Part shown: positions 2,050 through 56,700 of the stretch, in pieces
Numbering within the stretch: position 1 is the first letter of the stretch
Layout: the number at the start of each line of letters is the position of its first letter
Assembly (NCBI RefSeq): GCF_963921235.1
Contig: NC_086097.1
Coordinates: 31,126,001 to 31,190,000 of the forward strand
Source: Mobula hypostoma
Taxonomy: Eukaryota
Direction: 5' to 3'
DNA: 64,000 bases
Position numbers and translations under genes: made by a program
The notes under the pieces: generated by a model
What the model was told of the DNA's origin: nothing
Database searches by the model: none
The model's input: only the letters and a program-made list of their open reading frames with translations

Positions 2050-2198
2050 ACATCACACACAAAAAATGCTGGTGAACGCAGCAGGCCAGGCAGCAACTAT
2101 AGGAAGAGGTACAGTCGAAATTTCAGGCCGAGACCCTTCGTCAGGACTAACCGAAAGAAGAGATAGTAAGAGATTTGAAAGTGGGAGGGGGAGGGGAC
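2050..2198 (-). mobile_element. Penelope-derived short element with hammerhead-like motif (2113-2148)
   Basis: Minus strand AGTC-CTGACGA-AGGGTCTCGGCCT-GAAA-TTTC-GACT; same family as 21826-21986. Confidence 0.7.
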
Positions 2199-3101
2199 AT
2201 CCGAAAGTGCGAGGTTTTCCACACGGACGGGATCCTTTCCGGGCTGAGACTCAGATTTAGAGTGTGCAGAGAACTCTACACAACTCTACACAGCTGCTCA
2301 GCACACCCCTTCAGGACCCTGGGGTTCACACCATCTAGTCCCAATGGTTTGGTGTGTCTGAGTTTCCTCAGAGCCCCTCTCACCTGCTCAGTAGTGAAGG
2401 TGAGTCCATGATGACTGGAGGGGGTTAATGGAAGGTGGGGCTGGGGAAGGTGATGATTGGGATGATAGCAGTTGGAATGCGGAGGTGTGGATGGTAGGTG
2501 CAGGGCAAAGAAGGGATGTAGATAGTGGTAGCCTGTATTGTTTATCCACATGTTGAACTGGAAGGGGGAGGAGGAAGGCATTGATGTTGGGGGAGCATTG
2601 AGTACCTCTGCACCTAGACTGGTGTGCTGAGGGGGTGTGAACAGGGGATTAATTGTCAAAACTATTGAAGAATTGGTTTAATTTATTAGCCCATTGACAG
2701 CTGCATTCCAAAGCTCTACAGCCAGGCTGATTGAGGTCAGTGGTGTTCTCCATGCCTCTCCACACCTCCCGTGTGCTACTCTGCCCAAGCTTGTTCTCCA
2801 GCTCTCTCCTGTATTCTTCTTTAGCCACCTTGATCTTCATCTTCAGCTCCCTCTGCACATGTTTCAATTCCTCCCTGTCTCCTGATCTAAAGGCTCTCTT
2901 TGTGGTTGAGAACCATCAGATCACTGGTAACCCATGGTTTGTTGTTAGGGAAGCAGCGAACAGCTCTTGATGGTGTTACAGTGTCCATACGGAAGTTGAT
3001 GTAGCCAATGATGAAATCAGTAAGTTCATTAATGTCCTCCCCATATGGTTGACAATGCATGTTCCAGTCAGTAGCCTCAAAGCAGCCCTTCAAAGTCTCA
3101 A

Positions 3102-3238
3102 ACACGAGGAATTTCACAGATGCTGGAAGTTCAAGCAATACACATCAAAGTTGCTGGTGAACGCAGCAGGCCAGGCAGCACCTCTTCCTAGAGATGCTGC
3201 CTGGCCTGCTGCGTTCACCAGCAACTTTGATGTGTATT
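3102..3238. mobile_element. Fold-back Penelope-derived insertion, 15-bp TSD
   Basis: Perfect inverted arms of about 44 bp (AATACACATC...CAGGCAGCA) with a 14-nt loop; TSD CCTTCAAAGTCTCAA at 3087-3101 and 3239-3253. Confidence 0.85.
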
Positions 3239-5134
3239 CCTTCAAAGTCTCAATGGCCTCTGGAGACCATTCCTTTACTATCTTGGTGACGTCTAGCTGG
3301 TGCTGTACTTTGGGCTTATACAAGGGCATGAGGTGAACCAAGTTGTGATCCCAAGGGGGGGAGAGCTGTGGAACTGTATGCATCTTTAACATTTGCAGAC
3401 AAGAGATCCAGCGCTTTATTTTCCCTTGTATTACACTTGACAAACTGATTGAGCTGATAATGATAACCCTCTCCACAGATCCAACACCACAAGGAAGAAC
3501 TCCCACGCCAGGGGGTGGGAGAAGAAAGGATCAATCGTCTGGCCAACAGAGATCCCCTATTTCGGTGTTATAAAATGGAAACGAGGTCTGAGTGAGTACT
3601 GGTACAAAGGGAACAGAAGAATTCATGTTTTAAGTTGTTGGCCTGGGGTCAACATAGCTACATTGTTGTTTGTGCAGAGACAATAAAGTGCGAGCTTCAA
3701 TTAATTACGAGTTAAGTAATGATTTTCCTAACCTAGTTACATTGATGAATGGCCAAATTCGGGTCTCTGACCGTCAGGTAAGCTGACCCAGGGGCTTAGA
3801 CCTTCAGGCCTCTACCTCTTCTCTTGCTGACTTTGGTCTTCAACGTTTGAGCTTTTACCTCCAGATGCATCGGCCTCTGGGTATTGACTCCAGGACTTGC
3901 CATTCACGAGACTTTGACTTTCGGGCCTTGACATTCGGACTTGCACAGATCTTGAAACCCGTGACGGGGGCGGACAGCAGTATTGAGCTAAGAGTGTCAG
4001 CCAGGATCCTCGGGAGTGCATTCTGAGCCTTCAGAGTGCCAACATTTCAGCCACAGGTGACTAAAGGATGGAAACACACTGAGCAAAGGCAGTACGGGGG
4101 CCAGAGGAAGAACGAATGAGAGATGACGATTCCAGCACAGCTGAAGTAAGACACTTAGATTCCCACTGCTCTCGGAAAACCACAATAAAGAAAGGAATGT
4201 CCTTGGGCATTAAAACTGGATCATGCAGAATCTCGCCTAAACCGCTCAAAACGCATATGTGCAGTTCAGCTGTTCAGCAGTTTAGCAACACATCAGCCAA
4301 GTTCGACAAGGAAAAATTCATACCCAGAAGTGATCGCAAGTCAGAAATTCTATCAGTACCCACACATGAGCTGGGACATAAAAAGATAGCCTTGCATTTC
4401 TATGGAAATTTTTATGTCCCTTTCAAAGTGACACAAATGCTCTATTTTCCAAGTATATTGTAACACACAGAACATTATAGGTCCCATGCAATAAACTCCC
4501 TAAGCCAGCAATATGATGATTTAATTTTAATAAATTCATTTTCCAGGCTGTGTTAAGGGTTCCCTGTCACAGATCTCTGCAAAGGGAGAGAGTAAGAGCG
4601 TTTTTCCCAGGATGGAAATGTCAGATACTAAACGACATAGCTTCAAGGTAATAAGGGGAAAGTTTAAAGGTGTACAGACAAAGTGTTTTTACACAGGGAG
4701 TGGAAGGTAACTGGATTGTGACACCAGGGAAAGTGGGAGAAACAGAAGAGCAATATTTTAGAAAGCCATGAAATGGAGGGATATGGACTACATGCAGGAA
4801 GATGGGAATTGTGTGGATTGGTATCATGGCTGGCATTGGCATGTTCCTGTGCTGCACTGTTCTATGTTCTATGTCCAGGTGTCACTGGGAAAGGCAACTA
4901 TTGCTGTTCCCACCGGCCCTTGGGAAGGTGGGAGAACAGTTCCAGCCTGTCCAGACTCTCCTCATAGCTCGAATCCACAGGCCAACAGCAACACCCCTGT
5001 GAATCTTCTCAGCATATAACATAGAACAGTACAGCACATGAACAGGCTCTCTGGCCCACAATGTTGTACCAAACTAATTGAAGTAGTTATCAACTAATTT
5101 CATCCCTTTTGCCTAGAGGAAAGGGGGGGGGGCA

Positions 5135-5860
5135 GTGCAAATGCTCCTGTTGACATCAAAGATGCTGAGGTTGAGAGAGTTGAGAACTTTAAGTTATTAG
5201 GTGCGAACATCCCCAATAATCTTTCCTGACCCAATCACATTGATGGTATGGCCGATAAAGCTTACCAAAGCCTCTACTTTCCTCAAGAACCTAAAGAGGT
5301 TTGGCATGTCTTCTGTCGACTATTGCCAATTTTCATCAATGCATCATGGAAAACATTCTGTCTGGATACACATTGATTTGATATGGCAACTGTTTTGCAC
5401 ATGACCACAAGAAACTGCAGGGTTCTGGACGCAACTCGGCACATCACAGGACAGAGCCTCCCTTCTATGGACACTGTCTATACTTGCTGCCTCAGTACAA
5501 CTCCATCATGGGCACTAGGCTTCTCACCATCGAGGAAATCTTCAAAAAGCAATGTCTCAAAATATTCACCGTAAACGACTCTCACCATCCAGGACATTCC
5601 CTCTTCTCATTACTATCATCAGGCAGGCAGTACAGGAGCCTGAAGTAACACACTCAATGTTTTAGGAACAGTTTCTTCCCTCCACCATCAGATTTCTGAG
5701 CAGTCTATGAACACTACCTCACTATTTTTTTCCTTTACATTACATTTTTTATGGTAATTTATAATTTTTTTAAAAAATGCATTGCACTCTACTGCTGCTA
5801 CAAAACAACAAATTTCATGGCGTATATCAGTGATAATAAACCTCACTCTGATTCTAAATC
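5135..5860 (+). mobile_element. Rex1/Babar-like LINE 3' fragments
   Basis: Decayed EVERVENFKLLG and LYFLKNLKRFGMS motifs; tail GATAATAAACCTCACTCTGATTCT. Confidence 0.65.
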
Positions 5861-5945
5861 AAAGACCCCACCCACCCTGAATATTCTCTCTTTTCCCCTC
5901 TCCCATCATGGGGCGGAAGATACAAAAGCCCAAGCTTTGCCAACA

Positions 5946-6125
5946 TAGCAAGCCCATGACTTACTAACCCTAATGCATACATCCTTGGATTGTGGGAGGA
6001 AACTAGAGCACTCGGAAGAAACCCAGGCGGTCAGGTGGAAAACATACAAACTTCTTACAGACAGTGATGGGAATTGAATCCCCATCACTACCCCTGTAAA
6101 GCACTACAGTGACTGCCATGCTACT
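5946..6125 (-). mobile_element. V-domain tRNA-SINE
   Basis: Reverse complement of the GGGTTTCTTCCGAGTGCTCTAGTTTCCTCCCACA core and a B-box-like GATTCAATTCCC. Confidence 0.7.
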
Positions 6126-6605: not shown

Positions 6606-6850
6606 TAACAAACAAACATGAAGAGGTAGAATTGGAAAAGCTTCGAGATCTAATCAGCAGCTCATCTCTCAGTTTGCACAATGGAGTTCTGCTGCCAAGC
6701 ACAAACCTTTCTCCCAACTGCCGTCTCACTACTTCAGCAGCAGATCAAGGACAGAGGGGCTCATGACAGATGTCACAGTCTTTTTATATAAGTGCATTCC
6801 TTGTTCACACACAGCCCTGTGGGCCATACATTCTTGCTGATCAGACGTAC

Positions 6851-10140: not shown

Positions 10141-10500
10141 GGCCGGGACACATGACCCTCCGCGGGGCAACGGCAAGACGGCCTGACTTACCCCACGGAG
10201 GCGAGGACAAGACAAGACAGAACATGACCCCCTGCAGAGCAACGGCAAGACAGCCTGACCTAACCCACGGAGGCGAGGACAAGACACAACAAGACATGAC
10301 TCCCCGCGGGACAACGGCAAGACGGCCTGACTTACCCCATGGAGGCAAGGACGAGACAAGACATAACTCCCCGCGGGGCAATGGCAAGACGGCCAGACTT
10401 ACCCCCACGGAGGCGAGGACCAGACAAGACATGACCCCCCACAGAGCAACGGCAAGACGGCCTGACTTACCCCACAGAGGTGAGGACAAGACAAGACAAG
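10141..10500. repeat. Minisatellite, 67-72 bp unit x about 5
   Basis: CATGACCCC...GCAACGGCAAGACGGCCTGACTTACCCCACGGAGGCGAGGACAAGAC recurs at about 10151, 10223, 10295, 10362 and 10430. Confidence 0.92.
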
Positions 10501-10650
10501 ACCAACACGAATGAACACCAGACAGTACCTACCTAGCTCCTGCGATGGAACTAGACCGAAGTGCAGGCGGGGGCTGCAGACGAGGGCTTAGAGGTGAGAG
10601 GGGCAGAGAAGGGATTCAGACAAGGGGGTAGGACAGGAATCACAGACCAC

Positions 10651-10885
10651 AAGGGCCAGGACTTGACTTGGTGCTTGAATGCCGCCAGGGCCAGGACTCC
10701 ACTTGGGGCTTGAATGCCATCAGGACCAGGACTCGACTTGGTGCTCGAATGCCGTCAGGGCCAGGACTCGACTTGGTGCTAGAATGCCATCAGGGCCAGG
10801 ACTCGACTTGGTGCTAGAATGCTGCCAGGGCCAGGACTTGACTTGGTGCTAGAATGCCGCCAGGGGCAGGACTCGACTTGGAGCC
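10651..10885. repeat. Minisatellite, 35 bp unit x about 7
   Basis: AGGGCCAGGACTCGACTTGGTGCTAGAATGCCGCC with exact 35-nt period (10656, 10691, 10726, 10761, 10796, 10831, 10866). Confidence 0.95.
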
Positions 10886-13659: not shown

Positions 13660-15120
13660 GCATAAAAATTTGCAGCACATTACAGGCCCTTCGGCCCACA
13701 ATGCTATGCCGATCATGTAACCTACTCTAGAAACTGCCTAGTATTTCCCTACTGCATAGCCCTCTAATTTTAAAACTTCAAGTTCCATGTACCTATGTAA
13801 GAGTCTCTTACAAGACCCTACTGGATCCACCTCCACCACCATTGCTGGCAGTGCATTCCATGCACCCACCACTCTCTGTGTGGAAAACTTACCTCTGACA
13901 TCCCTCTTGTATCTACTTCCAAGCACCTTAAACTATGCCCTTGTGTTAGCCATTTCAGCCCTGGAAAAAAGCCTCTAGCCATCCACACGATCAATGCCTC
14001 CCATCATCTTATACACCTCAATCAGGCCACTTCTCATCCTCTGTCATTCCAAAGAGAAAAGGACAAGTTCACTCAACCTCATAAGGCATGCTCTCCAATC
14101 CAGACAGCATCCTTGTAAATCTCCTCTGCACTCTCTGTAGTATCCACATCCTTCCTGTAATGAGGTGACTAGAACTGAACACAGTTAGATCCTACTTGGA
14201 GTACTAAGCTCTTGTATAGCTGTAACGCTACCTCACAGCTCTTGAACTCAATCCCACAGTTGATAAAGGCCAACATACCATATGCCTTCTTAACCTGTGT
14301 GGCAGCTTTGAGTGTCCTGTGGACACAGGCCCCACGATCTCGCTGATCCTCCACACTGCCAAGAGTCTTACCATTATATTCTGTCTTCAAGTTTGACCTA
14401 CTGAAATGAACCACTTCACACTTATCTGGGTCGAACTCCATCTGCCACTTCTCAGCCCAGTTCTGCATCCTATCAATGTCCTGCTGTAACCTCTGACAAC
14501 CCTCCAGGCTAATCCACAACACCTCCAACTTTTGTGTTATCAGCAGACTTACTAGCCCACCCTTCTACTTCCTCATCCAAGTCATTTATAATAATCATAA
14601 AGAAGAGGGGTCCCAGAAAAGATCCCTGTGGAACACCACTGGTCACCGACCTCCATGCAGAATATGAACCACCCACAACCAGCCTTTGCCTTCTGTGGGC
14701 AAGCCATTTTTGGATCCTCAAAGCAAGGTCTCCTTTGATCCCATGCCTCATTACTTTCTAAATGAGTCTCGCATGGAGAACCTTATTAAATGCCTTATTG
14801 AAATCCATTCTCACTACATCCACTGCTCTACCTTTATCAATGTGTTTTGTTACATCCTCAAAGAGTTCAATCAGGTTCATAAGGCATGACTTGTCCTTGA
14901 CAAAGCCATGTTGACTATCCGTAATCAGATTATGTCTCTCTAAATGCTCATAATTCCTGCCTCTCAGGATCTTCTCCAACAACTTGCCCACCACTGAAGT
15001 AAGACTCACTGGTCTATTATTTCCTGGATTATCTCTACTCCCTTTCTTGGACAAGGGAACAATGTTTGTAACCTTCTAAACCTCCAGTACTTCTCCTGTC
15101 CCTATTAATGAAGCAAAGAT
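13660..15120 (-). mobile_element. CR1 LINE RT domain and 3' UTR
   Basis: [33 protein letters not shown] and WAEKWQMEF motifs with stops and frameshifts. Confidence 0.92.
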
Positions 15121-15605
15121 CATGAGGCCACTCTCACAATGGATGAGCAACACCTCCTATTCCATCCGAGTAGCCTCCAACCACTCAGCATGAATATCAA
15201 TTTCTCTAACCTCCAGTAGTTTCTCCACCCTCTTTCTTTTTCTATTTCCCATTTTGGCCTCACCGCCTTTGCCTCTTCTCTTCTCCTCACCTGCCTATCA
15301 TCTCCCTCTGGTTCCCCTCCTACTTCCCTTTCTCCCATAGTCCACTCTCCTCTCCTATCAGATTCCTTCTTCTTCAGCCTTTACCATTTCCAACTATTAC
15401 ATCCCAGCTACTCACTTCATTCATCCCTCAGCTATCACCTCCCAACATGTATTCCTTCCCCTCCCCCATCTTCTTATTCTGGCTTCTTTCCTCTTTCCTT
15501 TCCAGTCCTGATAAAGGGCCTCAGCCCAAAACATAAGACTTTATTTCTTTCCATAGATGCTGCCTGATCTCCTGAGTTCTTCCAGAATTTTATGTTTGTT
15601 ATTCT
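15121..15605 (+). mobile_element. Penelope-like element 3' end (GIY-YIG C-terminus, pyrimidine-rich UTR, decayed hammerhead motif at 15504-15540)
   Basis: Plus frame HEATLTMDEQHLLFHPSSLQPLSMNINFSNLQ* resembles the PLE C-terminal EQHLIFRLGSLQPxGMN motif; followed by AGTCCTGATAAAGGGCCTCAGCCCAAAACATAAGACT. Confidence 0.8.
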
Positions 15606-15714
15606 TGAGACAGAGAACAGGAAGGCTCATCGTGCAAGCAAAATAATAATTGACTTTGAAGCAATTTTTTCTTGCATTGAGGTAAACTGAGCTTAGAAAG
15701 GTGCTGGTCAAAGT

Positions 15715-18924: not shown

Positions 18925-18967
18925 CTGCAAAATGTCAACATTTTACTTTAGAAAACAGTCTTATATT

Positions 18968-19742: not shown

Positions 19743-20852
19743 CTGAAATGGAATTTAAAAATAAATTTACTTTTTATATAATCAACATTTTTTGCAAAGA
19801 CTTTTTATCAATATGCAAGCTAACAGTCATGGAGCAAATTTGAGGGGTCCTTTCATAAAGGTAAATGGCTTTTGGGTGATCACAGCTTGAAACCACTACC
19901 AAGGGCAAATGAATCAGGAATTGGAGGGTACAAATTTAACCAAAGGAAGAGGGCAGATGGAGAGTAGATTCTGACCTAGGATGTGTTGCTTTAACAGGGA
20001 AGGAAGCAGACTCTATTGTAAATTGCATCAGTGAAGCTGACACACAAGTAAAACAGAAAAAGCATATGCCCAGAGCAATGGCAAGGGTACAGAGAACTGG
20101 GTGATCTTGATGGCCAATACACAGTCCTAGCAGAGGTGGAATCAATGACCTGCCTTCCTGCTGTAGAGGGACAGGGCTTCCTGTCAGGCTCTCTGCTTAA
20201 TGATACTCGTGGGAAAGTCTGTCATTGATGAAAAGTGGGAAGGAAGGAAGACCTGGGCTGCTGCCCCTAGCAGATGACCAGACGAGGCACAAGCTATGGC
20301 TCAGGCCAAGAGCTTTGCTACCTGGGGAAACCATACTCAAGCCTGAGCTCTTAGCTTTGAGAAACTTCATAATGTTTGAAGAAAAGGCTACAGCGAGCTG
20401 TCGGTCTCCCTCTCGTCTTTTGCAGGAGCAATATCCTTTTCTTCCTTGCTAGTGAGAGAGAGTGCTTGTTTGAGATGTCTTAGTGTTGGGGTGGACAGTA
20501 GCTTTTGATAGACTCTAGATGGTCTCTGGGGGGGCTTGCTATTGCTTGCATGGTGGGTGGTGGGGGGATTGATGCTTTTGCTGGAGCAAGTGGGATGAAG
20601 GCTGAGTGGGGAGGCTTTGGGGTTCTAATGTTTTCCGTCATTCATTCTTTGGGTTTTTTAATGTCTCGTGGATATCTGCAAAGAGTAAGAATTTCAAGCT
20701 ATGTACCGTACACATTCTCTGATATTAAATTGAACCTCTGAACCATTGAAATATGTTGGATTAAAGTGAAAATTGTTATTTTTCTTGTAGTTTAACTTTT
20801 CCTATGATTGCTTGTATTTTTATATAATCATAACATACATGTAATTTTTCAG

Positions 20853-21057
20853 CAACACTCAAAACACACTGGAGGAACTCAGCAGGTCAGGCAGCATCCA
20901 TGGAAACGATCAGTCAACGTTTCGGGCCGGAACCCTTCGTCAGGATCCTGATGCCCGAAACGTTGACTGTTCATTTCCACGGATGCTGCCCGACCTGCTG
21001 AGTTCCTCCAGCATGTTGTGAGTGTTGCTCTGACCCCAGCATCTGCAGAGTATTTTG
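20853..21057. mobile_element. Fold-back Penelope-derived insertion with hammerhead core, 13-bp TSD
   Basis: Imperfect inverted arms of about 75 bp; TSD TGTAATTTTTCAG at 20840-20852 and 21058-21070; minus strand CTGACGA-AGGGTTCCGGCCC-GAAACGTT-GACTG. Confidence 0.85.
20911..20947 (-). ncRNA. Minimal hammerhead-like motif (core and stem II intact, stem I disrupted by the fold-back junction)
   Basis: GATC CTGACGA A GGGTTCCGGCCC GAAA CGTT GACTG. Confidence 0.55.
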
Positions 21058-21825
21058 TGTAATTTTTCAGTTGGTTTTCTAGAAGCTGCTTCTGTATTTT
21101 TCTAGAAGTTTCTTCATTTTCCTGCCACGGGGTCATGGCATTGAATTTGGCGATGTCATAGGTTAATTGTTATCACTGAAATGTCTTGTTTTTTGTCTAG
21201 TCTGAGCTAGTTTCTATGTTGGGACAATCATGACTGCTTTGTTTTTTTTTGTTTTTTCTTTGTTTTGTTTTCTTACAAATTGCCCCATGACAGTGTGGAT
21301 TTCCTCTGGGTGTTCCAGTTTCCTCCCACATTCCAAAGATGTATGGGTTAGGGTTAGTATGTTGTGGGTATGCTGTGTTAGCACGGGAAGTATGGTGACA
21401 CTTGTGGGCTGCCCCTGGCATAACCCTGGATCTTTCATTCTTCTAAAACCAGGAGAACTCAGGCCCCAATGGCTTAACCCTTCCTCTTCAGATGATTGCC
21501 CCATTCCCTCCATTCTCACACCACCACTCTGAAGTCAATCTTAGTATTATTTCCTCTGCTTGTGGATAACTTCATAGAACGTAGAACATTACAGCTCAGT
21601 CCAGGCCCTTCGGCCCATGATGCTGTGCCATCCTTTTAACCTGCTGATATGCCCCATGCCTCTTCTGTACTAGTTTCCCATACATAGCCCCAGTTTCCAC
21701 AATTAAGCAGGTTCTGGATTAGCGTATTCCTTTTAAAAAAGGCCAAATCTAACACTCACCGCATAATCAGGTGAAGAGAGATAAAAAACAGAAGGGTAAT
21801 GATATGACAGGAATGGTTTCAGTAA

Positions 21826-21986
21826 AGAATCTCTTACTAGCTCTTCTTTCAGTTAGTCCTGACGAAACGTCTCGGCCCGAAACGTCGACTGTACCTCTTC
21901 CTAGAGATGCTGCCTGGCCTGCTGCGTTCACCAGCAACTTTGATGTGTGTTGCTTGAAATTCCAGCATCTGCAGATTTCCTCGTGT
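21826..21986 (+). mobile_element. Penelope-derived short insertion, 13-bp TSD
   Basis: TSD ATGGTTTCAGTAA at 21813-21825 and 21987-21999; ends CAGCATCTGCAGATTTCCTCGTGT like the other copies. Confidence 0.85.
21855..21890 (+). ncRNA. Minimal type I hammerhead-ribozyme-like motif (stem II mutated in this copy)
   Basis: AGTC CTGACGA AACGTCTCGGCCC GAAA CGTC GACT: stem I AGTC/GACT, core CUGANGA and GAAA, GUC triplet, palindromic ACGT in place of helix III. Confidence 0.6.
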
Positions 21987-22298
21987 ATGGTTTCAGTAAG
22001 ATGGTTAAGAAGCATGTGGGACATTTTCTGTATTTCCAAGCTACAGAAATACGGAATACAGAATTTTGGCTTCTTTCCCCTTCCTTTCCAGAACTGATGT
22101 AGGGTCTTGGGACTCAAAACATTGACAGTTTATTCCCCTCCACTGATGCTACATGACCTACTGAGTTGCTCCAGCATTTTGGTACGTTGTTACAGATTTC
22201 TAGCATCTGCTGAATCTCTTGTGTTTATAAAGCAGAAAGGTTATGCTAGAATTGTGTACAATACATGTTTTAAGTCTTCCTGTTATGTTTAGACTTAC

Positions 22299-31909: not shown

Positions 31910-32205
31910 CGGCACAGTAGTGTAGCAGTTAACACAACATTTACAGTGCCAGAAATCACTGATGAGGGCTCAATTCCACCGCTGTCTGAAAGGAGTTTGT
32001 ATATTCTCCCTGTGACCATGTAGGTTTCCTCCAGTACTCCAGTTTCCTCCCATATTCCAAAGATGTACAAGTTAGAGTTAGTAAGTTGTGGGCATGCTGT
32101 TTTGGCACTGGAAGCATGCAACACTTGTAGGCTGCCACAGCACATCCTCAGACTGACGCATTTCACTGTATGTTTTAATGCACATGACAAATAAAGCCAA
32201 TCTTT
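31910..32205 (+). mobile_element. V-domain tRNA-SINE, near full length
   Basis: GGCACAGTAGTGTAGCAGTTAACAC head, GGGCTCAATTCC B box, V core and 3' tail; followed by a Penelope fragment at 32210-32420. Confidence 0.8.
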
Positions 32206-32579
32206 AGAGTAACGCACACAAAATCCTGGAGGAACTTAGTAGGTCAGGCAGTATCTATGGAGGGAAATAAACAGTCAACGTTTTGGGATCCTTCATCAAA
32301 ACTGGAATGGAAAAGGACAGAAGCCAGTGTCAGAAGGTGGGGGTGGGGAAGGAGTTCTAGCTGGCAGATCCTACAGTAGAAGAGACCAGGTGAGGGGAAA
32401 AGTAAAGTGGTTGGGGGAATATCTTTAAATCTTTATCTTTAAAAAAATTCAATGGCCAGTATGTCAACTTTGCTTTGATCTACATTAAAATATTTATATA
32501 TGTCATGCAAAGGAAGAAAATCAAGCAGAAAGTCAAATACCATACAGATCTGTGGTGAGCAGGTTCAAATGGTGAAATA

Positions 32580-36525: not shown

Positions 36526-37233
36526 ACGCTAGTCCTAATCCGCATACAAGATCCTGAGGATACCAGGCAGGGTAGCATCTCAGCGAAGGCTTGGGATATA
36601 AACGCTGGCCCTGATGACCATGAAAATGAAACAACGTTCAGACCCAGTCAGACACCATCACTGCAGTTGTGTACACCAGACACTGCTAGTCAAACAGCTG
36701 CATGGAAGCATCAAATAACCTGCTGGAGGAACTCAGCGAATGAAGGAGCGTCTGTGGGAGGAAAGAATCTGTCAATGTTTCAGGTCGAAACCCTACAGCA
36801 GGATAGGATGGACATGGAAACAAGCTTGGTTTGTGGGGGGAAATATCTTCATCCTGTATTGCACACACAAAGTATTGAAAGCATCCTAAGGTGTTTTTTT
36901 TAAGAGTTCTACCACATTAGAAAGACTAATACTGAGCTAAGAACAGTAGAGAAAATTTGAAAGTTTGTTTGAAGAGGGTGGCCATTGATGCAGCCATTCT
37001 GAAAAAAGATAGCAGAAAAAAAGGAACGTGACAGAGCTGGGGTAGAGAGGAGACAGAATCCTTAACGACATCAGCAATCAGGGACAGGAGGGATAGGTGA
37101 TGAGCAGTTTGAAACAGTATACTACATTGATAAAGAAACTAAATTATGGCTTAATTTAGATACAAGGTGTGTGCCCACCAGACAATCTGCATGACAGGAT
37201 GGCACAGTAGCATAGTGGTTAATGTAATGTGTT

Positions 37234-38164: not shown

Positions 38165-39372
38165 ACATAGAAACATAGAAAATAGGTGCAGGAGTAGGCC
38201 ATTCGGCCCTTCGAGCCTGCACCGCCATTTATTATGATCATGGCTGATCCTCCAACTCAGAACCCCACCCCAGCCTTCCCTCCATACCCCCTGACCCCCG
38301 TAGCCACAAGGGCCATATCTAACTCCCTCTTAAATATAGCCAATGAACTGGCCTCAACTGTTTCCTGTGGCAGAGAATCCACAGATTCACCACTCTCTGT
38401 GTGAAGAAGTTTTTCCTAATCTCAGTCCTAAAAGGCTTCCCCTCTATCCTCAAACTGTGCCCCCTCGTTCTGGACTTCCCCAACATCGGGAACAATCTTC
38501 CTGCATCTAGCCTGTCCAATCCCTTTAGGATCTTATACGTTTCAATCAGATCCCCCCTCAATTTTCTAAATTCCAACGAGTACAAGCCCAGTTCATCCAG
38601 TCTTCCTTCATATGAAAGTCCTGCCATCCCAGGAATCAATCTGGTGAACCTTCTTTGTACTCCCTCTATGGTAAGGATGTCTTTCCTCAGATTAGGGGAC
38701 CAAAACTGCACACAATACTCCAGGTGTGGTCTCACCAAGGCCTTGTACAACTGCAGTAGTACCTCCCTGCTCCTGTACTCGAATCCTCTCGCTATAAATG
38801 CCAGCATACCGTTCGCCTTTTTCACCGCCTGCTGTACCTGCATGCCCACTTTCAATGACTGGTGTATAATGACACCCAGGTCTTGTTGCACCTCTCCTTT
38901 TCCTAATCGGCCACCATTCAGATAATAATCTGTTTTCCTATTTTTGCCACCAAAGTGGATAACTTCACATTTATCCACATTAAATTGCATCTGCCATGAA
39001 TTTGCCCACTCACCCAACCTATCCAAGTCACCCTGCATCCTCTTAGCATCCTCCTCACAGCTAACACTGCCACCCAGCTTCGTGTCATCTGCAAACTTGG
39101 AGATGCTGCATTTAATTCCCTCATCCAAGTCATTAATATATATTGTAAACAACTGGGGTCCCAGCACTGAGCCTTGCGGTACCCCACTAGTCACCGCCTG
39201 CCATTCTGAAAAGGTCCCGTTTATTCCCACTCTTTGCTTCCTGTCTGCTAACCAATTCTCCACCCACACCAATACCTTACCACCAATACCGTGTGCTTTA
39301 AGTTTGCACACTAATCTCCTGTGTGGGACCTTGTCAAAAGCCTTTTGAAAATCCAAATATACCACATCCACT
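38165..39372 (-). mobile_element. Young 5'-truncated CR1 LINE (RT C-terminal half nearly intact)
   Basis: 350-aa ORF with DVVYLDFQKAFDKVPH, SGVPQGSVLGP and KFADD; a single frameshift near VVNLW; (TTTCTATG)n tail. Confidence 0.95.
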
Positions 39373-41684
39373 GTTTACAATTGTTCACAATTGTTTACAA
39401 TTCTAAGAGTCGCAAACCTAGTCAGCTCCATCATGGCACTAGCCTCAGTAGTATCCAGGACATCTTTAAGGAGCAGTGCAGCAAAAAGGCAGTTTCTATC
39501 ATTAGGACCACCATCACCGAGGACATTGCCTGTCCTCATTGCTATCATCAGAAAGGAGGTACAGGAGCCTGAAGGCACACAGCTTCTTCCCTCTGCCGTC
39601 CGATTTCTGAATGGGCATTGAACCCATCAACACTACCTCACTACTTCTTTTATTTCTATTATGGCACTACTTATTTTATTTAGCTATTTAATATACTGTA
39701 ATTCACAGTTTTTTCCTCTATTATTATTGACAAATGCAAAGATAACAAATCTTACAACATATGCTGCTAATATTAAACCTGATTCTGATTCTAAATTCCT
39801 GCCACTGTCTGTAAGGAGCTTGTATGTTCTCCCCATAACTGGGTGCTCTGGTTGCCTCCCACATTCCAAAGATGTACAGGCCAGCAAGTTTATGAGCATG
39901 CTATGTTGGTACCAGAAGCCTGGTGATATTTGCGGGCTGCCCCCAACAGATCTTCACTTGGACTCTGTTGGTCCTTGATACAAACAATGCATTGCACTGT
40001 ATGTTTTGATGTAAAACTAATCTTAGACCTTCCAGCTTATACTTCTTCCCTTCCCCCGACCTTCTTATCTGGCTTCATCCCCCGTCCTTTCCAGTCCTAA
40101 TCAAGGGCCTCAGTCTGAAACATCGACTCGTTATTCCTTTCCATAGAGATTGCCTGACCTGCTGAGATCCTCCAGCATTGTGCGTGTGCGTGTTACCCTG
40201 GATTTCCAGCATCTGCAGAATCTTGTGTGTGGATGTCTTTAAATCTTTAATCTTTAGAATGGAATAATGTCTATTTTAACTGGGAATGGAATAGGAGCAT
40301 GCATTGCGTTGGGTACCTAGTCCAGAATATATACTTGCCCTTACAGAAATGAAGGAATGATCAGAAGAGGGGCTAAATGATGAAACTGCTGGCAGCTTCT
40401 ATATTATTGATTAGGGATGAACTTTACTTGCTAATGAAGAGTTACTTCTCACATTGAAGATAAAGGATGGATCTCGTGCACCAGGTCTCACACCACTGCT
40501 AAGCTAACATGTGAGGGATCGCAGAGCACTGCACACTTCTCAGATTTGTTCACTTTGTTTGACCACTTTTCCTCGGCTCTCAAATGCATGCTAAACAAAG
40601 CAAAGGTGACACACATATTTCCTGGCTCCACTGCTGGCAGCAGGCAGATTCGAGGTAATCACTGTCAAGCAATGGCATCCATCCAGCAGTACTGTTTGCA
40701 TGTGCAACTTTTGAACAGCAGCCATAATAATAATCTAAAAATAAGCAGTGTCACAAGCGTGCAGAACCTCTAACCACCCCTACAGCGTGTTCCACTCACA
40801 GTGAGGGACCGAGGATGGACAGACAGCTGTTGTGTCAGCCATGGCTTACTGGCCAGCATTCTCACTTCTTGAGGTGAAAGACTATAGGTTCAAGACACTA
40901 CAGGGACTTTAACACCATAAAAATTTAGCCTGACATTCCCAGTGCAGTACTGTCTGTGGTACTATCTTTGCCTGAGGCCCCATGTGTTCTTCAAATTATA
41001 GGAAAAGATGGCAAGGAACCACTTCAGAGAGAAAGCAGGCATATTACTGCATGCCAATATCCAGCCCCCATCAATAGCAACTGAACAAATTAAACAGTCC
41101 ATTAGCCACACGGACTTTTGTCTGCCAGGTATTTGACAATACAACAGTGATTTCATTACTCAAAAGCACTGTCAGACATCCTGAGGTAGAGAGGGAGCTT
41201 TAATTAAATACTAACTTTATTCGTCATATGTACATTGAAGCATTGAAACCTAGAGTAAAGCACATCATTTGCATCAAATCAAATCATCAAGGATGTTCTG
41301 GACAGTCCGCAAGTGATGCCACATTTCCAGTACCAACATAACATGCCCACGACTCACTAACCCTAACTGTACATCTTTGGAATGTGGGAGGAAACCGATG
41401 AACCTGGGGGAAACCCACATGATCACAGGGTGAACACACAAACTCCTTAGAGACAGCAGCGGGAATTGAACCTTGATTGATGATTGCTGGCTGGTGCTGT
41501 AAAGCAATATGGTAACTGCTACACAATTGTCCAACCTTGTATATCAGTGCAGCTACGTGACCATGATTGATACAATGGTGTTTGGGTCCACTCTCCTTCC
41601 TCTTTTGCTTGTCCATTATCAATTGTATCACTAACATTTCCTGTTCTCACCCTGAAATGGAAAATTCCCTCAAGTCTGCTGCCT

Positions 41685-42090: not shown

Positions 42091-43404
42091 TATTCTTCTC
42101 CCTCATCTATCTTTGCCTCATCCTTGCCTCATTTTCTCTGTCCAGTCAGACCTTTGACAGATAATTCAGAACCTCTCTGTAGATCATGCAATCACCGTAA
42201 AGAAAAATAAAATCAATGCTTCAGTCAATATCGTTTCATCAGAATTGCCCTGATGTATTCAATGGCCTGAAAGAGTATCTCTGATCTTCCCTCTCTGCCT
42301 GCCGAGTGTCTTCATCTTTTGGTGTCTACTTGAGATTTGTGGCAGGTGCTAGAAAAGTAAATCAAACAGATTCCTGTATGTTCCACCAGCCTGCTTCCTG
42401 TCAGGAATATACTTCACACTCTGCTTCTCTGTTATACAACACAGAACAGTATGGCACAGGAACTGGCCATTCAACCCATCATGTCTGTACTGAACACGAT
42501 GCCAATCTAAACCAATTCCATCTGCCTGCATATGATCCCTATTCCTCCATCCCAGCCTATTCATGTGCTTGTCTAAATGCCTCTTAAACATTGTGATCAC
42601 GTCTGCTTCCAGTACAGTGTATTCCACCTACCTATCACTTTCTGTGTAAATAATAACTTGCCATGTAAATCTCCTTTAAACTCTCACCCTCCTCACCTTA
42701 AATATATGACCTCTAATATTTCACATTTCTGCCCTGGAAAAAAGACTCTATCTACTCTATTTATGCCTCTTATAACTTCTGTCAAATTGCCTCTCTGCCT
42801 GTGACGCTCCAGAGAAAACAATCCAAGTTTGTCCAGATGTTCCTTGTGGTAATTCTCTCTAATCCAGGCATTATCCTGGTGAACCTCAATGCTAAAGTCA
42901 AATTTATTATCAAAATACATGTATGTTATCATATACTACCTTCAGATTCATTTTCATGCAGGCATTTACAGGAAAAATACGAAATACAATAGAATTTATG
43001 AAAAATTGTACATACACAAAGAATGCCAAACAACCAAATTGCAAAAGACAAACTTAGCAAATTAAAAAAAAAAGAAAATGAGGTTTTCACCCTCTCCACA
43101 GCCTCCACATCTTTCCTTTAAAGGGGTGATCATAACTGCATACTCCGAATATGGCCCAATCAACGATGTATACAGCTGCAATATGACTGATGAAGGAACG
43201 GGGGTCATACGCCATCAGTGCTACTCTATGTACTTGCAATTCTCACAGTGCGCTGCCAGAGGAGACGGTGGAATTAGGTACAATCACTGTGTTTGAGAGG
43301 CCTTTGGACAGGTACTTAAGTAAGCGAGACACAGAGGGATACGGAGCTAATGCTCCACATTCTTGAAACTCATTTGGGGATGGTTCAAGAGCTGTGATGT
43401 ACTT

Positions 43405-46475: not shown

Positions 46476-47529
46476 GGGAAAGGAGCTGGAGTAGTCTTTC
46501 TTTACAGCACTGAGAAATCATCTGAGCACAGAAGATCAAGATGTAGCATTGACACACAAGAGACTGCAAATACCAGAATCTGAAGCAACAAAATGCTCAT
46601 TGGATCATGCAGCATCTCTGTGGGGGGAAATGGAGAATTTACATTTTAGGTTGATTGAAATGAGAAACAGAAAGGCCACCTGCGAGGAACTATACTGCAG
46701 CACAGCATACAAAATGAACAAATAATAGAAACACATTTCAATAATCATGGGTAACAGTTTGTATAAACTGGACAAGTCAAGTTGGCAAAGGTAGTCTTGA
46801 GGATGCGCTTACAGAGTATTCAGGACTCTTGATAAGGTGTACAAGATGATAAGAGGCATAAATCGAAAAGAGGCATAAATCAGAGAATTTTACCCAGGGT
46901 GTAAATGGCTAACACAAGAGAGCATAATTTTAAAGTGATTGATACAGTATAATTTTAAAGTATAGAATGGAAATCTGAATTAATTTTTTTTTACACAGAG
47001 AGTGGTGGGTGTGTGAAACGCGCTGCCAGGGTTAGTGATAGAGGCAGATACATTAGGGACGTTTAAGAAACCATAAGACATATGAGCAGAATTAGGCCAT
47101 TCGGCCCATAATGCCTGATCTGACATTCCATCATGACTAATTTATTTTCCCTTTCAACCTCAGTTTTCTGCCTTCTCTCTGTAGCTTTTGACACCTTAAC
47201 TAATCAAGAACCTATCAACCACCACTTTAAATATACCCAATGACTTGGCCTCCACAGCCATCTGTGGCAATGAAATCACCACCCTCTGGCAAAAGAAATT
47301 CCTCCTCATAGAAACTCTTAGGCACACAGATGATAGAAAAATAGAAGGCTATGTGTGAGGAAAGGGTTTGATTGATCTTACAGTAGGTTAAAGGGCAGCA
47401 CAACATCATGGGCCAAAGGGCACATACTGTCTGCAATGTTCTCTGTTCAATGTTTCTGTTGTGGAAAAGACCAGGGGACAGGGTATCTTTGAAGCTGTCA
47501 TTTGCAATGAGATTAATCAGGATCATTGG

Positions 47530-49850
47530 GAAGAGAATGATTAGAATGCTATAATTAGATTACAGCTGGGAGCTTGATGAAAGGATAGGTAGGAAGGCAA
47601 AGAGGATGGTGTTGCTCTGTTGGCAAAAACTGAAATCAAATTATTAGAAAGAGATGACATAGGGTCAGAAGGTATTCATTGTGTATAGAGCTAAGAAACT
47701 GCAAGAGTAAGAAGACCCTGATGAGAGTTATATCCAGACCCCCAAACAGTAGTAAGGATGTGGCCTCCAAATTATAATGAGAGATAGAAAATGTATGCCA
47801 AGATGGCAATGTTACCATAGACATGGGGGACTTCAATATGCAGGTAGATTGGGAAAATCAGGTTGGTGCTGGATTCAAGAAGGGGAAATATCTAGAGTGC
47901 CCATGAGATGACTTTTTAGAGCAGTTCGTGGTTGAGCCCATCAGAGGATCAGCTATTGCAGACTGGGTGTTGTGCAATGAACCAGAATTGATTACAGAGC
48001 TTAAGGTAAAAGAACCCTTAGGGAACTTGATCATATCATCAAATTCACTGCGAACCTTGATAAGGAGAAACAAAAGTCAGATCTATCAGTATTACAGTGG
48101 AGTATAGGGAATTACAGAGGCATAAAAGAAGAGCTGCCAGAATTGACTGGAAAAGAACACTGGCAGGGATAATAGCAGAGCAACAATGGCCAGCTCCAAC
48201 ACCAGCAATTTCTGGAAGCAATTTGGAGGGTACAGGATATATACATCAAAAAGAGGAAGAAATATTTTAAAGGAAAGATGACACAATCATGACTAACAAG
48301 AGAATTCGAAGTCAACATAAAAGCCAAAGAGAGGGCATATAATAGAGCAACAATTAGTGGGAAGTTAGAGGATTGGGAAGCTTTCAAATTACCAACAGAA
48401 GGCAACTAAAAAAGTCACTAAGAAGGTAAAAATGGAATATGAAAGTAAGCTGGCCAATAATATTAAAGAGGATAGCAAACATTTCTTCAGATGCATGAAG
48501 TGTAAAAGAGACGCAAGAGTGAACATCGGACTGCTGGAAAATGATGCTAGAGAGCAATCCTACCGAAGGGTCTCGGCCCAAAAAGCCACTGTACTTTTTT
48601 CCTAGATGCTGCCTGGCCTGCTGAGTTCTTCCAGCATTTTGTGTGTGTTGCTTGGATTTCCAGCATCTGCAGATTCTCTCTTGTTTCTGGAGAGGTAGTA
48701 ATGAAGGATGATGAAATGGCGGAAGAACTGAGTAAGTATTTTACATGAGTCTTCACTGTGGAAGACACTAGCAGTGTGGTGGAATTTTCAGGTGTCAGGG
48801 GGCATGAACAGTGTGAAGTTACCATAACTGAACAGAAGGTTCTTGGGAAATAGAAAGGTGCGAAGGTAGATAAGTCAACATGACCAGATGGTGTGCACCC
48901 CAAGGTTCTGAAAGAGATGGCGGAAGAGATCGTGGAGGCATTAGTAATGATCTTTCAAGAATCACTAGATTCTGGAATGGTTTCAGAAGACTGTAAAATT
49001 GCAGATGTCACTCCACTCTTCAAGAAGTGAGAGAGACAGAAGAAACAAAACTATAGGCCAGTTAGTCTGTCCTCAGAGGGTGGGAAGATGTTGGACTCGA
49101 TTATTAAGGATGAGGTCTCAGGATACTTGGAGGAACATGATAAAATAAATCGTAGTCAACATGACTTCCTCAAGGGAAAATCTCACCTGACAAATCTGTT
49201 GGAATTCTTTGAAGAAATAACAAGCAGGATAGACAAAGTAAAATTGGTTGATGTTGTGTACTTGGATTTTCAGAAGGCCTTTGACAAGTTGTCACACCTT
49301 AGGCTGCTTAACAAGCTACGAGCCCATGGTATTACAGGAAAGATTCTAGCATGGATCAAACGGTTGCTGATTGGCAGGAGGCAAACAGTGGAAATAAAAG
49401 CCATTCCAGGATTGAATGGCTTGCCATATGAAGCATGTTTGGTCGCCCTGGGCCAGTATTCACTAGAATTCAGAAGAATAAGGGATTAAAAACCCATTGA
49501 ATGGCAAAAGGCCTTGACAGAGTGGATGTGGAGAGGATGTTTCCTATAATGGGAGTGTCTAGGACCAAAGGACACAGCCTCAGAATAGAGAGGCGTCCTT
49601 TTAGAATGGAGGTGAGGAGGAATTTCTTTAGACAGAGAGTGGTGAATCTGTGGAATTCTTTGCCACAAGCACCTGTGGAGGCCAATTCTTCATGTATATT
49701 TAAGGCAGAGGTTGATGGATTCTTGATTGTTCAGGGCATGAAGGAATATGGGGAGCAGGCAGGAGATAAATATTGGATCAGCCATGATGAAGTGGCGGAG
49801 TAAACTTGATGGGCCAAATGGCTTAATTCTGCTAAAATATCTTATAGTCT
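47530..49850 (+). mobile_element. CR1 LINE from endonuclease to 3' UTR, with internal RT deletion (about 49400) and a Penelope-derived insert (about 48553-48686)
   Basis: RPPNS and MGDFN endonuclease motifs; DVVYLDFQKAFDK; jump from RRQTVEIK directly to IPGLNGLPYE. Confidence 0.9.
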
Positions 49851-51835: not shown

Positions 51836-52852
51836 TAACCATATAACAATTACAGCACGGAAACAGGCCATCTCGGCCCTTCTAGTCCATGCCGAACTCT
51901 TACTCTCACCTAGTCCCACCGACCTGCACTCAGCCCAGAACCCTCCATTCCTTTCCTGTCCATATAGCTGTCCAATTTAACTTTAAGCGACAACATCGAA
52001 CCTGCCTCAACCACTTCTGCTGGAAGCTCGTTCCACACAGCTACCACCCTCTGTGTAAAGAAGTTCCCCTTCATGTTACCCCTAAACTTTTGCCCTTTAA
52101 CTCTCAACTCATGTCCTCTTGTTTGAATGTCCCCCACTCTCAATGGAAAAAGCCTATCCACCTCAACTCTATCTATCCCCCTCATAATTTTAAATACCTC
52201 TATCAAGTCCCCCCTCAACCTTCTACACTCCAAAGAATAAAGACCCAATTTGTTCAACCTTTCTCTGTAACTTAGGTGATGAAACTCAGATAACATTCTA
52301 GTAAATCTTCTCTGTACTCTCTCTATTTTGTTGACATCTTTCCTATAATTCGGTGACCAAAACTGTACACAATACTCCAAGTTTGGCCTCACCAATGCCT
52401 TGTACAATTTCAACATTACATCCCAACTCCTATACTCAATGCTCTGATTTATAAAGGCCAGCATACCAAAAGCTTTCTTCACCACCCTATCCACATGAGA
52501 TTCCATCTTCAGGGAACTATGCACCATTATTCCTAGATCCCTTTGTTCTACTGCATTCTTCAATGCCCTACCATTTACCATGTATGTCCTATTTTGATTA
52601 GTCTTACTAAAATGTAGCACCTCACATTTATCGGCATTAAACTCCATCTGCCATCTTTCAGCCCACTCTTCTAACTGGCCTAAATCTCCCTGCAAGCTTT
52701 GAAGACCTACATCATTATCCACAACTCCACCTATCTTAGTATCATCTGCATACTTACTAATCCAATTTATCACACCATCATCCAGATCATTAATGTATAT
52801 GACAAACAACATTGGACCCAGTATAGGTCCCTGAGGCACACCACTAGTCACC
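51836..52852 (-). mobile_element. Young 5'-truncated CR1 LINE inserted into a Rex-like tail
   Basis: Uninterrupted frame from VTSGVPQG through KYADD to the natural stop at 51910; host sequence GTAGGTT|GTGGAATCAG is split. Confidence 0.95.
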
Positions 52853-53128
52853 AGTTGTGGAATCAGTTCAGTGTTGAGGTGAGTAAAGATGTCCACACCG
52901 TTTCAGGACCTGATAGCTGAAGGGTAATAACTGTCCTGAATCTGGTGGTATGGTACCTCCTGCCAGATGGTAGCAGTGGGAGGAGAGCATGGCCTGGATG
53001 ACTGGGGTCCTAGGTAATGGATGGTAGTGGTAGCACTTAATGTAAATGAACTCAATGGTTTACATGACCTTGTCCTGATGCAGGATCTCAGTCACAAACA
53101 TTGATCATCTTATTGCCTCCATGACCTA

Positions 53129-53698
<570 letters not shown>

Positions 53699-54228
53699 TT
53701 ATGTTGTGAAATTTATTACTGCATAGCGGTACTGTACAATACATAGAAAATTACTATGTCTCAATTATATATGTGTGCGTGTATTATAGAACTATATAAT
53801 TGTATATACAGTTTCTTCCTCTCCAACAACAGATTTGAGAACTCTCCATGAACCCATGAATCCTACCTTGCTATTTCTCTTTTGCACTATTTATTATATT
53901 TTCTATTACAACTTGCAGTAATTTTTGTCTCGCACTGTACCAAAGCTTCACAACAACAAATTTCATGACATGGATAGCAGTGATAATAAACTTAATTTTC
54001 ATTCTGATTTTAAATCTTTTGTTTTGTAGCAGCAGTACAGTTTAAAGATGTAAAAATGCAAAAATATGCAAGTAGTGCAAAGAAAAAGAATAGTGAGGCA
54101 GTGTTCATGGACCTTTCAGAAATCTGATAGTGGAGGAGAAGAAGTTTTTCCTGAATCATTGAATATGTGTCTTAAGCCTCTTGCACCTCACACAGATGGT
54201 AGCAATGAGAAGGGGGCATGTCCCGAAT

Positions 54229-54505
54229 GGTGAGGATAATGAAGATCAGTGAGATGGTGAGAATGACGGAGATTAGTGAGATGGTGAGGATGATGGAGAT
54301 TAGTGAGATGGTGAGGATGATGGAGATTAGTGAGATGGTGAGGATGATGGAGATTAGTGAGATGGTGAGGATGATGTGATTAGTGAGATGGTGAGAATGA
54401 TAGAGATTAGTGAGATGGTGAGGATGATGGAGATTAGTGAGATGGTGAGGATGATGGTGTTTAGTGAGATGGTGAGAATGATGGTGATTAGTGAGATTAG
54501 TGATA
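54229..54505. repeat. Minisatellite, about 27 bp unit x about 10
   Basis: GAGATTAGTGAGATGGTGAGGATGATG repeated head to tail inside a Rex-like fragment. Confidence 0.93.
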
Positions 54506-56334
54506 GATCCCGCCTTCTTGAGGCACCACTACAATGTTAGCATTCATTCTGAGAGGACTGGAATATAGCAGCAAGGATGTAATGCTGAGGTTTTGTAAAA
54601 AGAATTCAACGGTGGGGAAGGTTGTGTCCATGATAGAGCTGGCTGAGTCTACAACCCTCTGCAGCCTCTTGTGATCCTGTGCATTAGCGCCTCCATACCA
54701 GGCTGTTGTGCAAGCAAACACCAGTTCCCCCTCAGTTCCCTGCCCTTGCTGACATATTCACATCTTATTCCTGTCACTGCATGCTTCCATAGAAATATCT
54801 TCTGTAGAGATCACTCAGATAGTGCAAGGATGATTGGCAAGTATGGAACAAAGCACAATGTCACCTTCATCAAAATAAGAGAAGCACAATCAAACCCCAC
54901 CATACGAATGACAGAACTAGAAATTAATTTAATTATTTAAATTAAAATTAGTCTCAATGAAATCTTCAACCTTGAAGGAAGAATACAGAGTTAGTGGCAG
55001 GCTTCATAGCATGTTGAGGAACAGAGGGCCCTCCCACAGTTGCTGTGCAAGTTGATAGTGTGGTTAAGAAGCTGTATGATGTGTTGGCCTTCATTAGTTG
55101 TGGGATTGAGTTCAAGAGCTGCGAGGTAAAGCTGCAGCTCTATAAAACTCTGGTATGACCACACTTGAAATATTGTGTTCAGTTTTGGTCGCTTTCTTGA
55201 TATCAAGATTCCCTAGAATATTACCAGACTCCTCCCTGATCTCACTACCCTCTGTGTCCTTCTTGGTGAATACAAATGTGAAGTACTCAGTTTACCACTT
55301 CTACTGCCTCTGATTGAAGAGATAACTTCTTTCCTTTGTCCTTGAGTGGGCCTACCCTCTCCCTACTTACTCTCTTATTTTTTTAATATATGCACAAAAT
55401 GCCTTGGGATTCTCTTTAATCCTACCCACCAAGGTTGTCTTGTGACCCCTTTTCACCCTCCTGATTCCCAGCTTCAGTTCTCGCCTGCTTCCTCCAGGGC
55501 TCTGACTGATAATCAGTTTTCTAAACCTCTCTATTTTGCAACACCTCTTGTCATCCAAGGTTTCCGAATCTTCCTGTCTCGTCCTTGTTCTTTGCAGAAA
55601 CTTTACAGCACAGTAAAGGCCCACCAGTCTACGATGTTGTGCCGATATTTGAACCTAACCCACGATCAATCTAACCCTCCCTCCCACATAGCCTTCCATT
55701 TTTCTATTCTCCATGTGCCAATCTAAGAGTTTATTAATGCCTATCTAGGAGTTTCTTTAAAATATCTGATGAAGTAGCCCCTATCAGCACCCCTGGCAGT
55801 GTGTCCCACTCTGTGTAAAACAATCTACCTCTGACATCCCTTCTATACTTTCCATCAAGCACCTTGAAATTATGCCCCCCCCCCCTTATGTTAGCTATTT
55901 CTGCCCTGGGAAAAAAAGGTCTCTGGCTATCCACTATTAGAGCTGTACTTGAGAATGTCACACTCAATTACAACATTATTCAAAAATACTGATCTGCAGA
56001 AACTGCTAAAGCCAACCACAAGCAGAAGAGAAAAGTAACACAATGACGTAATGTTTAGGACAGACTGTACAAAAGCAGCGGAAACAGACTGATGTCGCAT
56101 TCTATAACAATAACACATATGTCTGTCTTTTATTTCTCCCAATGCTTTTCCACTTCCATCTAGCTTTTGAGATGGGGCAAAATCTGAGCTCTACTTTAAT
56201 TTTTGTTGAAGTTATTTAATTTTCAAATACTTGTCCTGAAGATTTGGTCTGCTGCTAAGTAAATTGCAAGAGTTTACACAACACACAGAACACACATACA
56301 TTTTGTTGTGTAAACTCTTGCAACCTACCAAGGA

Positions 56335-56700
56335 ACTGTGGAAAGAAATAAACAGCTGATGTCTCGGGCCGAAACCCTTCATCACGACTGGAAAGGAAAG
56401 GGGAAGAAGCCAGAATAAGAAGGGAGAGGAAGGAGGACAAGCTGGCAGGTGATAGGTGAGATCAGGTGAGGAGGAATGTGGGTGGGTGGGGATGTAGTGA
56501 GAAACTGAGAGATGATAGATGGAAAAGGTAAAGGGTTGAAGAAGAAGGAATGTAACAGGAGAGAAGAATGGACCATGGGAGAATGGTAAGGAGGAGGGCA
56601 CCAGAAGGAGGTGATGGGCAGGTGAGGAGAAGAGAAGGGATAAGAGGGGGACCAGAATGGGGAATGAAAAGAGAGAAGGGGAAGGAGACAGAGATTACAC
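56335..56700 (-). mobile_element. Penelope-like 3' UTR with degenerate hammerhead motif
   Basis: Antisense homologue of 15220-15560; minus strand CAGTC GTGATGA AGGGTTTCGGCCC GAGA CATC. Confidence 0.75.

Follow-up and report, generated by a model that had tools for sequence, protein, structure and literature searches.

Minimal hammerheads of Penelope-like elements and the ray family

The closest described relatives of the family treated here are the minimal hammerhead ribozymes (min-HHRs) in the pseudo-long terminal repeats (pLTRs) of metazoan Penelope-like elements (PLEs), motifs known from the Xena, Poseidon and Neptune PLEs of fish, from coelacanth and from Xenopus (Cervera and De la Pena, 2014, PMC4209133). 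The present analysis concerns a 64-kb stretch of the genome of the ray Mobula hypostoma (NC_086097.1, positions 31,126,001 to 31,190,000 of the forward strand; the whole stretch is called the window below), which lies in the gene BRF1b and in which a first-pass annotation had noticed some ten dispersed copies of a short sequence with a hammerhead motif. The family is most probably the pLTR end of an endonuclease-containing (EN+) PLE with a min-HHR, and we put the probability that its copies are dead, 5'-truncated 3' ends of a highly amplified retrotransposon of this type, falling into several subfamilies, at roughly 85%. Elements of this kind were already described by Cervera and De la Pena (2014), and what is new is an example from a cartilaginous fish at high density, with 14 motif-bearing copies in 64 kb.

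The ray motif agrees with the published min-HHRs in its core of CUGANGA and GAAA, an extra base between positions 9 and 10.1, a G10.1-C11.1 pair, a helix I of 4-5 bp and a palindromic 15.2-16.2 stretch without loop 3, and also in occurring mostly as single motifs left by truncated elements, whereas its helix II consists of 4 bp and a tetraloop, compared to the 7-8 bp of the Schistosoma motifs (PMC4209133). The Poseidon element PAc of Anolis is similar in carrying a pLTR hammerhead upstream of two internal start sites of reverse transcription (RT), which produce an optional tail of 30-40 bp, and in using uncut RNA as the main template (Frangieh et al., 2024, PMC11167929). However, the open reading frame (ORF) of PAc starts inside stem II and its start region is AC-rich, whereas no open frame common to the ray subfamilies starts in the motif, and their sense strand is GU-rich at the 3' ends. 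Terms for shark, skate or chimaera are absent from two supplementary files of Cervera and De la Pena (2014), sharks are mentioned only regarding motif shape in the accessible part of another paper (PMC6155905), and our literature search found no paper devoted to PLE hammerheads of rays or sharks; one chondrichthyan genome is covered by Li et al. (2026), and unseen supplements may list such motifs.

Copies and consensus of the hammerhead motif

All ten copies of the first-pass annotation are real: the ten stretches stand where it had placed them, and they were recovered by a profile built from seven of them, which was run on the window with the reversed window as control. Sixteen of the 26 listed matches of this profile had E values below 0.01, compared to five matches with a best E of 0.26 in the control, and the copies outside the seed set, at 22075, 36717 and 53071, scored with E values of 4e-12, 3e-12 and 6e-4, respectively. 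The profile added overlooked motif-bearing copies at 32218 (-), 63540 (-), 20945 (+) and, weakly, 42175 (-), as well as 3'-end fragments at 3147 (-) and 3178 (+), and a longer model without any match in the control contributed another fragment at 46603 (-), representing a copy at 46554-46653. A structural pattern with up to three mismatches matched five times in the window and never in 100 shuffles. The census comprises 14 motif-bearing copies, distributed 7:7 over the strands, and three 3' fragments, which together correspond to 15 insertion events and occupy about 2.7 kb or 4.2% of the window, with about one motif-bearing copy per 4.6 kb. No hammerhead family appeared among the 18 matches at E<=10 of an Rfam scan of the window, which is probably due to the absence of helix III from the motif, and five pattern searches in contig collections from metagenomes, viruses and prokaryotes yielded no loci.

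Contigs of four public runs were aligned with positions 15040-15660 (59,921, 45,501, 3,148 and 2,520 placed), and their summed depth was not taken as copy number. In three of the runs, the loose-end consensus before position 15540 is exactly the one that had been derived by eye (469, 334 and 65 contigs of X1, X18 and X15), and the fourth (X10, 72 contigs) contains the identical motif with letters of CpG decay. This consensus is composed of helix I, (C)AGUC/GACU(G), the CUGANGA stretch, one additional A and helix II, GGGU/GCCC closed by a tetraloop, followed by GAA, the palindrome ACGU and C17, and the core (C3-U4-G5-A6-N7-G8-A9, G12-A13-A14, A15.1-U16.1 and H17) is complete in the contig consensus as well as in that of the window. 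The extra A between positions 9 and 10.1 is present in 13 of the 14 copies and deleted in one, G10.1-C11.1 is the commonest pair at its place (5/12 copies, with G-U in three more), and the palindromic 15.2-16.2 stretch, which lacks loop 3, reads ACGU in the contig consensus and in four of the 14 copies. At the CpG of this stretch, CA is found in eight of the 14 copies and TG in none (p=0.008 if the copies are independent), an excess which could be due to chance or to ACAU having stood in an older master of the subfamily. As judged from its sequence, the family consensus represents a full minimal type I hammerhead whose helix III is replaced by the palindrome ACGU. Both the contig consensus and the window copies thereby support the proposed minimal hammerhead of Penelope type, in which a palindrome substitutes for helix III, and the profile matches and the hundreds of public contigs likewise speak for the very abundant dispersed family that had been postulated.

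In the 12 copies used for covariation analysis (two with deletions in helix II were left out), the nine pairs of helices I and II form in 79.8% of the cells, versus at most 53.6% in slid registers, and two-sided changes occur in five of the nine pairs, with 16 of 500 shuffles scoring as high. With so few and decayed copies, helix covariation gives at most weak support to the predicted structure. Approximate energy models, in which one outer pair is non-standard, rank folds that pair the core with the CGUC stretch above the active fold of either monomer or dimer, which fits a predicted low or protein-assisted activity; folding of the whole 3' end of the copy at 21836 gave nothing special (z -0.38). 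The tail and the block behind the ribozyme (21905-21975 and equivalents) share an 8-bp complementarity, with 94% of the cells paired in eight tailed copies and a covariation not above that of shuffles, and this helix could be a stem placing RT priming.

Truncated 3' ends, their decay and competing explanations

The motif, the truncation, the target site duplications (TSDs), the tails, the inverted pairs and the decay of the copies can all be read directly from the window. The copies share one or the other of two 3' end positions, some carrying a tail of about 34 nt and others not (8 of 17 aligned pieces have it), their 5' ends are scattered from -387 to +38 relative to C3 (15 events), and their lengths vary continuously up to the end of an ORF. 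In three of the 13 events searched there are exact TSDs, of 15, 13 and 13 bp, and imperfect ones occur at 36711 and 48555. Two insertions are head-to-head inverted pairs which each carry the tail on one arm only; for the copy at 42175 no inverted partner was found. Contig depth in the public runs climbs steeply toward the 3' end, and subfamilies A and B and some divergent ones are distinguishable among the copies. Truncation, an inverted copy, an optional tail of 30-40 bp and variable TSDs are hallmarks of PLEs, and the tail on one arm of both inverted pairs constitutes a PLE signature according to the same sources (Craig et al., 10.1101/2021.04.23.441226; Arkhipova et al., 2013, PMC3846280). 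No copy has its 5' end at the cut site (+28), which is to be expected with uncut RNA serving as template (PMC11167929).

The longest copy opens with 32 codons and a stop (15121-15219, plus strand), and the nine family-majority letters listed for 15156-15219 leave this frame open to the TAA. From its ending of the type E..LI..L..L.P.G.N, it is probably a GIY-YIG C-terminus and looks rather Neptune-like, an assumption that no search confirmed. Contigs span the joints between the ORF end and the untranslated region (UTR; 15171-15311 and 15196-15375) and between the UTR and the motif (15436-15579), indicating that the ORF end is part of the element. The first-pass annotation had described the copy at 15121-15605 as following a GIY-YIG-like C-terminus; the ORF end is indeed present, and its GIY-YIG identity went unconfirmed in protein searches. 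A candidate remnant of the ORF end upstream of the copy at 56334 was rejected, as 32 of 300 shuffles scored as high.

In the proposed mechanism, the master element would have its hammerhead, of the minimal type I, about 285 nt past the ORF stop. Judging from the work on the Anolis PLE, the PLE protein would nick the DNA and start to reverse-transcribe within the RNA, at either of two sites about 70 and 105 nt beyond the cut site, giving rise to 3' ends with or without the tail, and it would read uncut RNA through the ribozyme, mostly stopping early. Fold-back of the complementary DNA (cDNA) would produce the head-to-head pairs. The ribozyme of the master is predicted to cut probably only as a dimer or with help from proteins, processing tandem transcripts, and the inserted copies would undergo neutral decay without acting on BRF1.

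Several observations weigh against this explanation. No PLE reverse transcriptase or GIY-YIG match was obtained for the 32-residue ORF end in Pfam (no families), the representatives (one match, to an unrelated repeat protein), the atlas (none at >=0.9), the word index (no candidate) or the PDB (none), although blank protein searches are unsurprising for 32 decayed residues. The 64-kb window contains neither a full-length element nor two direct pLTRs flanking a partial-tandem full-length copy; further PLE coding fragments may be present in it. Every two-sided helix change is confined to a single copy, and kin sequences can pass the shuffle control without any structure; the flank which served as decay control also helped to find the copies. 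Finally, three to five insertions begin at one place, which is not predicted by plain random truncation: the 5' ends of five of the 15 events lie at -5, -5, -3, -3 and -2 from C3, inside the 5' strand of helix I, and three of these are firm, namely the insertion at 48555 in a CR1-like long interspersed nuclear element (LINE), the fold-back centre (20861/20945) of the pair at 20853-21057, and 63630. Under an exponential truncation model, three such starts have p=0.002 and five have p=3e-6, uncorrected for the post hoc choice of the range of positions.

Neutral decay of the copies is evident from their mismatches. All 11 core bases are kept in three of the 14 copies, and none has retained the core, both helices and ACGU together, so the remark that no single copy matches the consensus perfectly was correct. 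Mismatch frequencies are 14/118 (12%) in the core and 61/428 (14%) in the downstream flank (12 copies, p=0.55), and they reach 53/135 at CpG columns versus 73/381 at the other columns (p=7e-6). A core no better conserved than its flanks had been named beforehand as an argument against the hammerhead family; this is the state of the window copies, but not of the master element.

The cluster of starts at helix I may be explained by two classes of copy. The short ones (about 140 nt) would represent complete run-off cDNAs whose internal priming took place in the upstream pLTR and which stop where the RNA has its 5' end (a start or a 3' splice site), at helix I; the long ones would have been primed in the downstream pLTR and randomly truncated on their 5' side. 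This would add to the explanation by truncated PLE insertions rather than replace it, and we regard it as a tentative option that is on balance unlikely. Subfamilies A and B both read YYANWYY, which is the initiator consensus, and YAG after a pyrimidine tract at the helix I start, and in D. virilis the 5' end of helix I is where an intron ends (PMC4209133). However, the number of events is small, the range of positions was picked after the fact, and two of the five copies read UGUC or AAUC without an initiator or AG match, the upstream sequence of their subfamilies being unknown. Moreover, the identical pattern would arise if RT stalled at the border of the pyrimidine tract, and no intron joint from the ORF stop to helix I occurs among the 15 joints listed (765 others exist); contigs cannot show RNA ends. 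Considerably less probable is the non-autonomous, retrozyme-like family of the first-pass annotation, understood here as a discrete family which replicates via circular RNA cut by the hammerhead and owes its mobility to a PLE. Most copies indeed lack any ORF and are 90-220 nt long, and animal retrozymes have been proposed to derive from pLTRs, also occur as monomers and are on record for one chondrichthyan (Li et al., 2026, bioRxiv 10.64898/2026.07.22.740005). The non-LTR retrozymes of animals resemble the ray family in being short, non-coding, pLTR-related repeats with type I hammerheads, but they are repeated in tandem with a fixed unit length, their type I motifs are canonical, with loop-loop contacts, and they give abundant small circular RNA (Cervera and De la Pena, 2020, PMC7229834; Li et al., 2026). 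In contrast, the ray copies occur singly or as inverted pairs, are truncated to varying degrees (the longest extends into the ORF end), flanked by TSDs and not delimited at the cut site, with a motif of the minimal PLE type that has no Rfam hammerhead match, and none of the 14 TRF rows of the window covers a copy. Neither of the two testable retrozyme features, tandem monomers and a canonical type I hammerhead, is found in the window, and the scattered 5' ends, TSDs, inverted pairs and optional tails are those of truncated PLE insertions.

The least probable of the alternatives is that some sense-strand copies cut BRF1 pre-mRNA, singly or as heterodimers, and alter its processing. The best sense copy, the motif at 2113-2148, retains 11/11 core bases and both helices, but its helix III palindrome is lost (AUUU), leaving no self-complementary helix III; the motif at 20911-20947 retains the core, helix II and ACGU, but lacks the 5' strand of helix I, and the two are 19 kb apart. 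One contig of guessed RNA status is identical to 15112-15308, so that the intron may exist as RNA. Yet the computed active folds are less stable than those burying the core, single min-HHRs did not cleave in vitro (PMC4209133), and neither did 8/9 dimers from Xenopus (bioRxiv 10.64898/2026.07.22.740005). Since there is no intact copy in the window, the core decays like the flank, CpG decay is fast and the strands are evenly represented, cutting of BRF1 pre-mRNA by the window copies is unsupported and unlikely; the earlier suggestion that copies in BRF1 sense orientation could do so is not borne out, as 0/7 sense copies keep the core, both helices and ACGU, and there is no sign of any effect of the copies on BRF1.

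Individual copies, host gene and significance

BRF1 had been named as host gene, and this was borne out: an exon translation from the window matches BRF1b of Mobula hypostoma with 100% identity, and six coding exons of the gene map to the minus strand between 53536 and 6850 (53536-53387, 35556-35461, 22436-~22296, 19745-19701, 18925-18833 and ~7133-~6850). None of these exons overlaps with a hammerhead-family copy, and copies outside the outermost mapped exons are counted as intronic because the BRF1b protein extends on both sides.

The longest copy of the window continues from its ORF end, whose upstream neighbour is a CR1-like LINE fragment, into a pyrimidine-rich 3' UTR or pLTR body (15220-15503, +), which it has in common with the copy at 56334-56688 (74% over 363 nt), and closes with the motif at 15504-15540 (G8 and G12 lost) and a tailless 3' end (15504-15603, +). 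Subfamily A is represented by the 5'-truncated copy without tail around the motif 2113-2148, which sits inside a LINE (2053-2217, -), and by a young copy with tail and a 13-bp TSD (21826-21986, +; TSD at 21813 and 21987), whose motif (21855-21890) has an intact core and a broken helix II (2/4 pairs). One frame of subfamily A stays open all the way between helix I and the end of the tail (21855-21986, +), so that this subfamily may be mis-annotated as coding; in subfamily B that frame is closed. To subfamily B belong an old copy with tail (22063-22226, +; A9 and G12 lost), a copy without tail (32203-32420, -; C3 and G12 lost, loop 2 deleted), a further one with tail (40027-40228, +; G5 and G8 lost) and the copy with about 300 nt of 3' UTR at 56334-56688 (-), in which the motif at 56354-56389 has lost C3 and A14 and the 3' end is broken off. 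In place of this 3' end, a perfect inverted repeat of about 19 bp with a TG-rich spacer is found at ~56260-56335, possibly a small separate insertion. A subfamily B-like copy with tail starts at helix I and has lost three core bases (63495-63630, -).

More divergent or weaker copies are located at 36711-36812 (-; divergent subfamily, A6 and A9 lost, probable 10-bp TSD with 9/10 identities), 53072-53159 (+; old and divergent, with an apparent start at helix I, A9 and G12 lost) and 42175-42248 (-; weak and old, E 0.004, helix I with a compensatory pair and helix II broken). The copy at 48555-48686 (+), inside the CR1-like LINE, starts exactly at helix I position 2.5 and shows a tail, an 8-bp TSD (7/8) and the loss of four core bases, and the weak 3' fragment with tail at 46554-46653 (-; E 2e-5, outside the model training set) is missing the 5' half of the motif. 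The first inverted pair consists of 3' ends without hammerhead (3102-3238) and has its tail on the minus arm and a 15-bp TSD (3087-3101 / 3239-3253). The second (20853-21057) folds back at the start of helix I and is bordered by a 13-bp TSD (20840-20852 / 21058-21070); its minus arm has an intact core and helix II with a GUU triplet, and its plus arm carries the tail and has the 5' side of helix II deleted. Both pairs (3087-3253 and 20840-21070) form long hairpins that give spurious Rfam microRNA matches (3136-3239 and 20898-20982), all below the gathering score, and, if transcribed, they would yield double-stranded RNA hairpins in BRF1 introns.

LINE fragments make up a large share of the remaining sequence. 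CR1-like LINE reverse transcriptase fragments are located at 38319-39374 (-), 51910-52902 (-) and 49031-49489 (+), two of them with open frames of 330-351 amino acids, and RVT_1 matches in Pfam were obtained for the first and the last of these. The N-terminus of a Tc1/Sleeping Beauty-type transposase is encoded at 60308-60733 (-; Pfam HTH_SB, E 2e-15). A frame of 168 amino acids at 29712-30218 (+) resembles by eye a gag fragment of an LTR retrotransposon (Pfam PNMA only at E 0.1), with pol-like fragments continuing downstream to about 31100. Minisatellites with periods of 72, 35 and 27 bp (10150-10498, 10652-10881 and 54227-54497) are unrelated to the hammerhead family.

The many TSD-bounded copies of the ray genome could serve as a dataset on what the PLE hammerhead does in vivo, showing whether or not the RNA has been cut when it is copied and at which point it begins. 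If the short copies ending at helix I are indeed run-off products, many of the very numerous short copies of the genome would be cDNAs comparable to "strong-stop" products, and ray genomes would log the transcription start, the priming sites and the ribozyme use of PLEs at single-base resolution over very many insertions.

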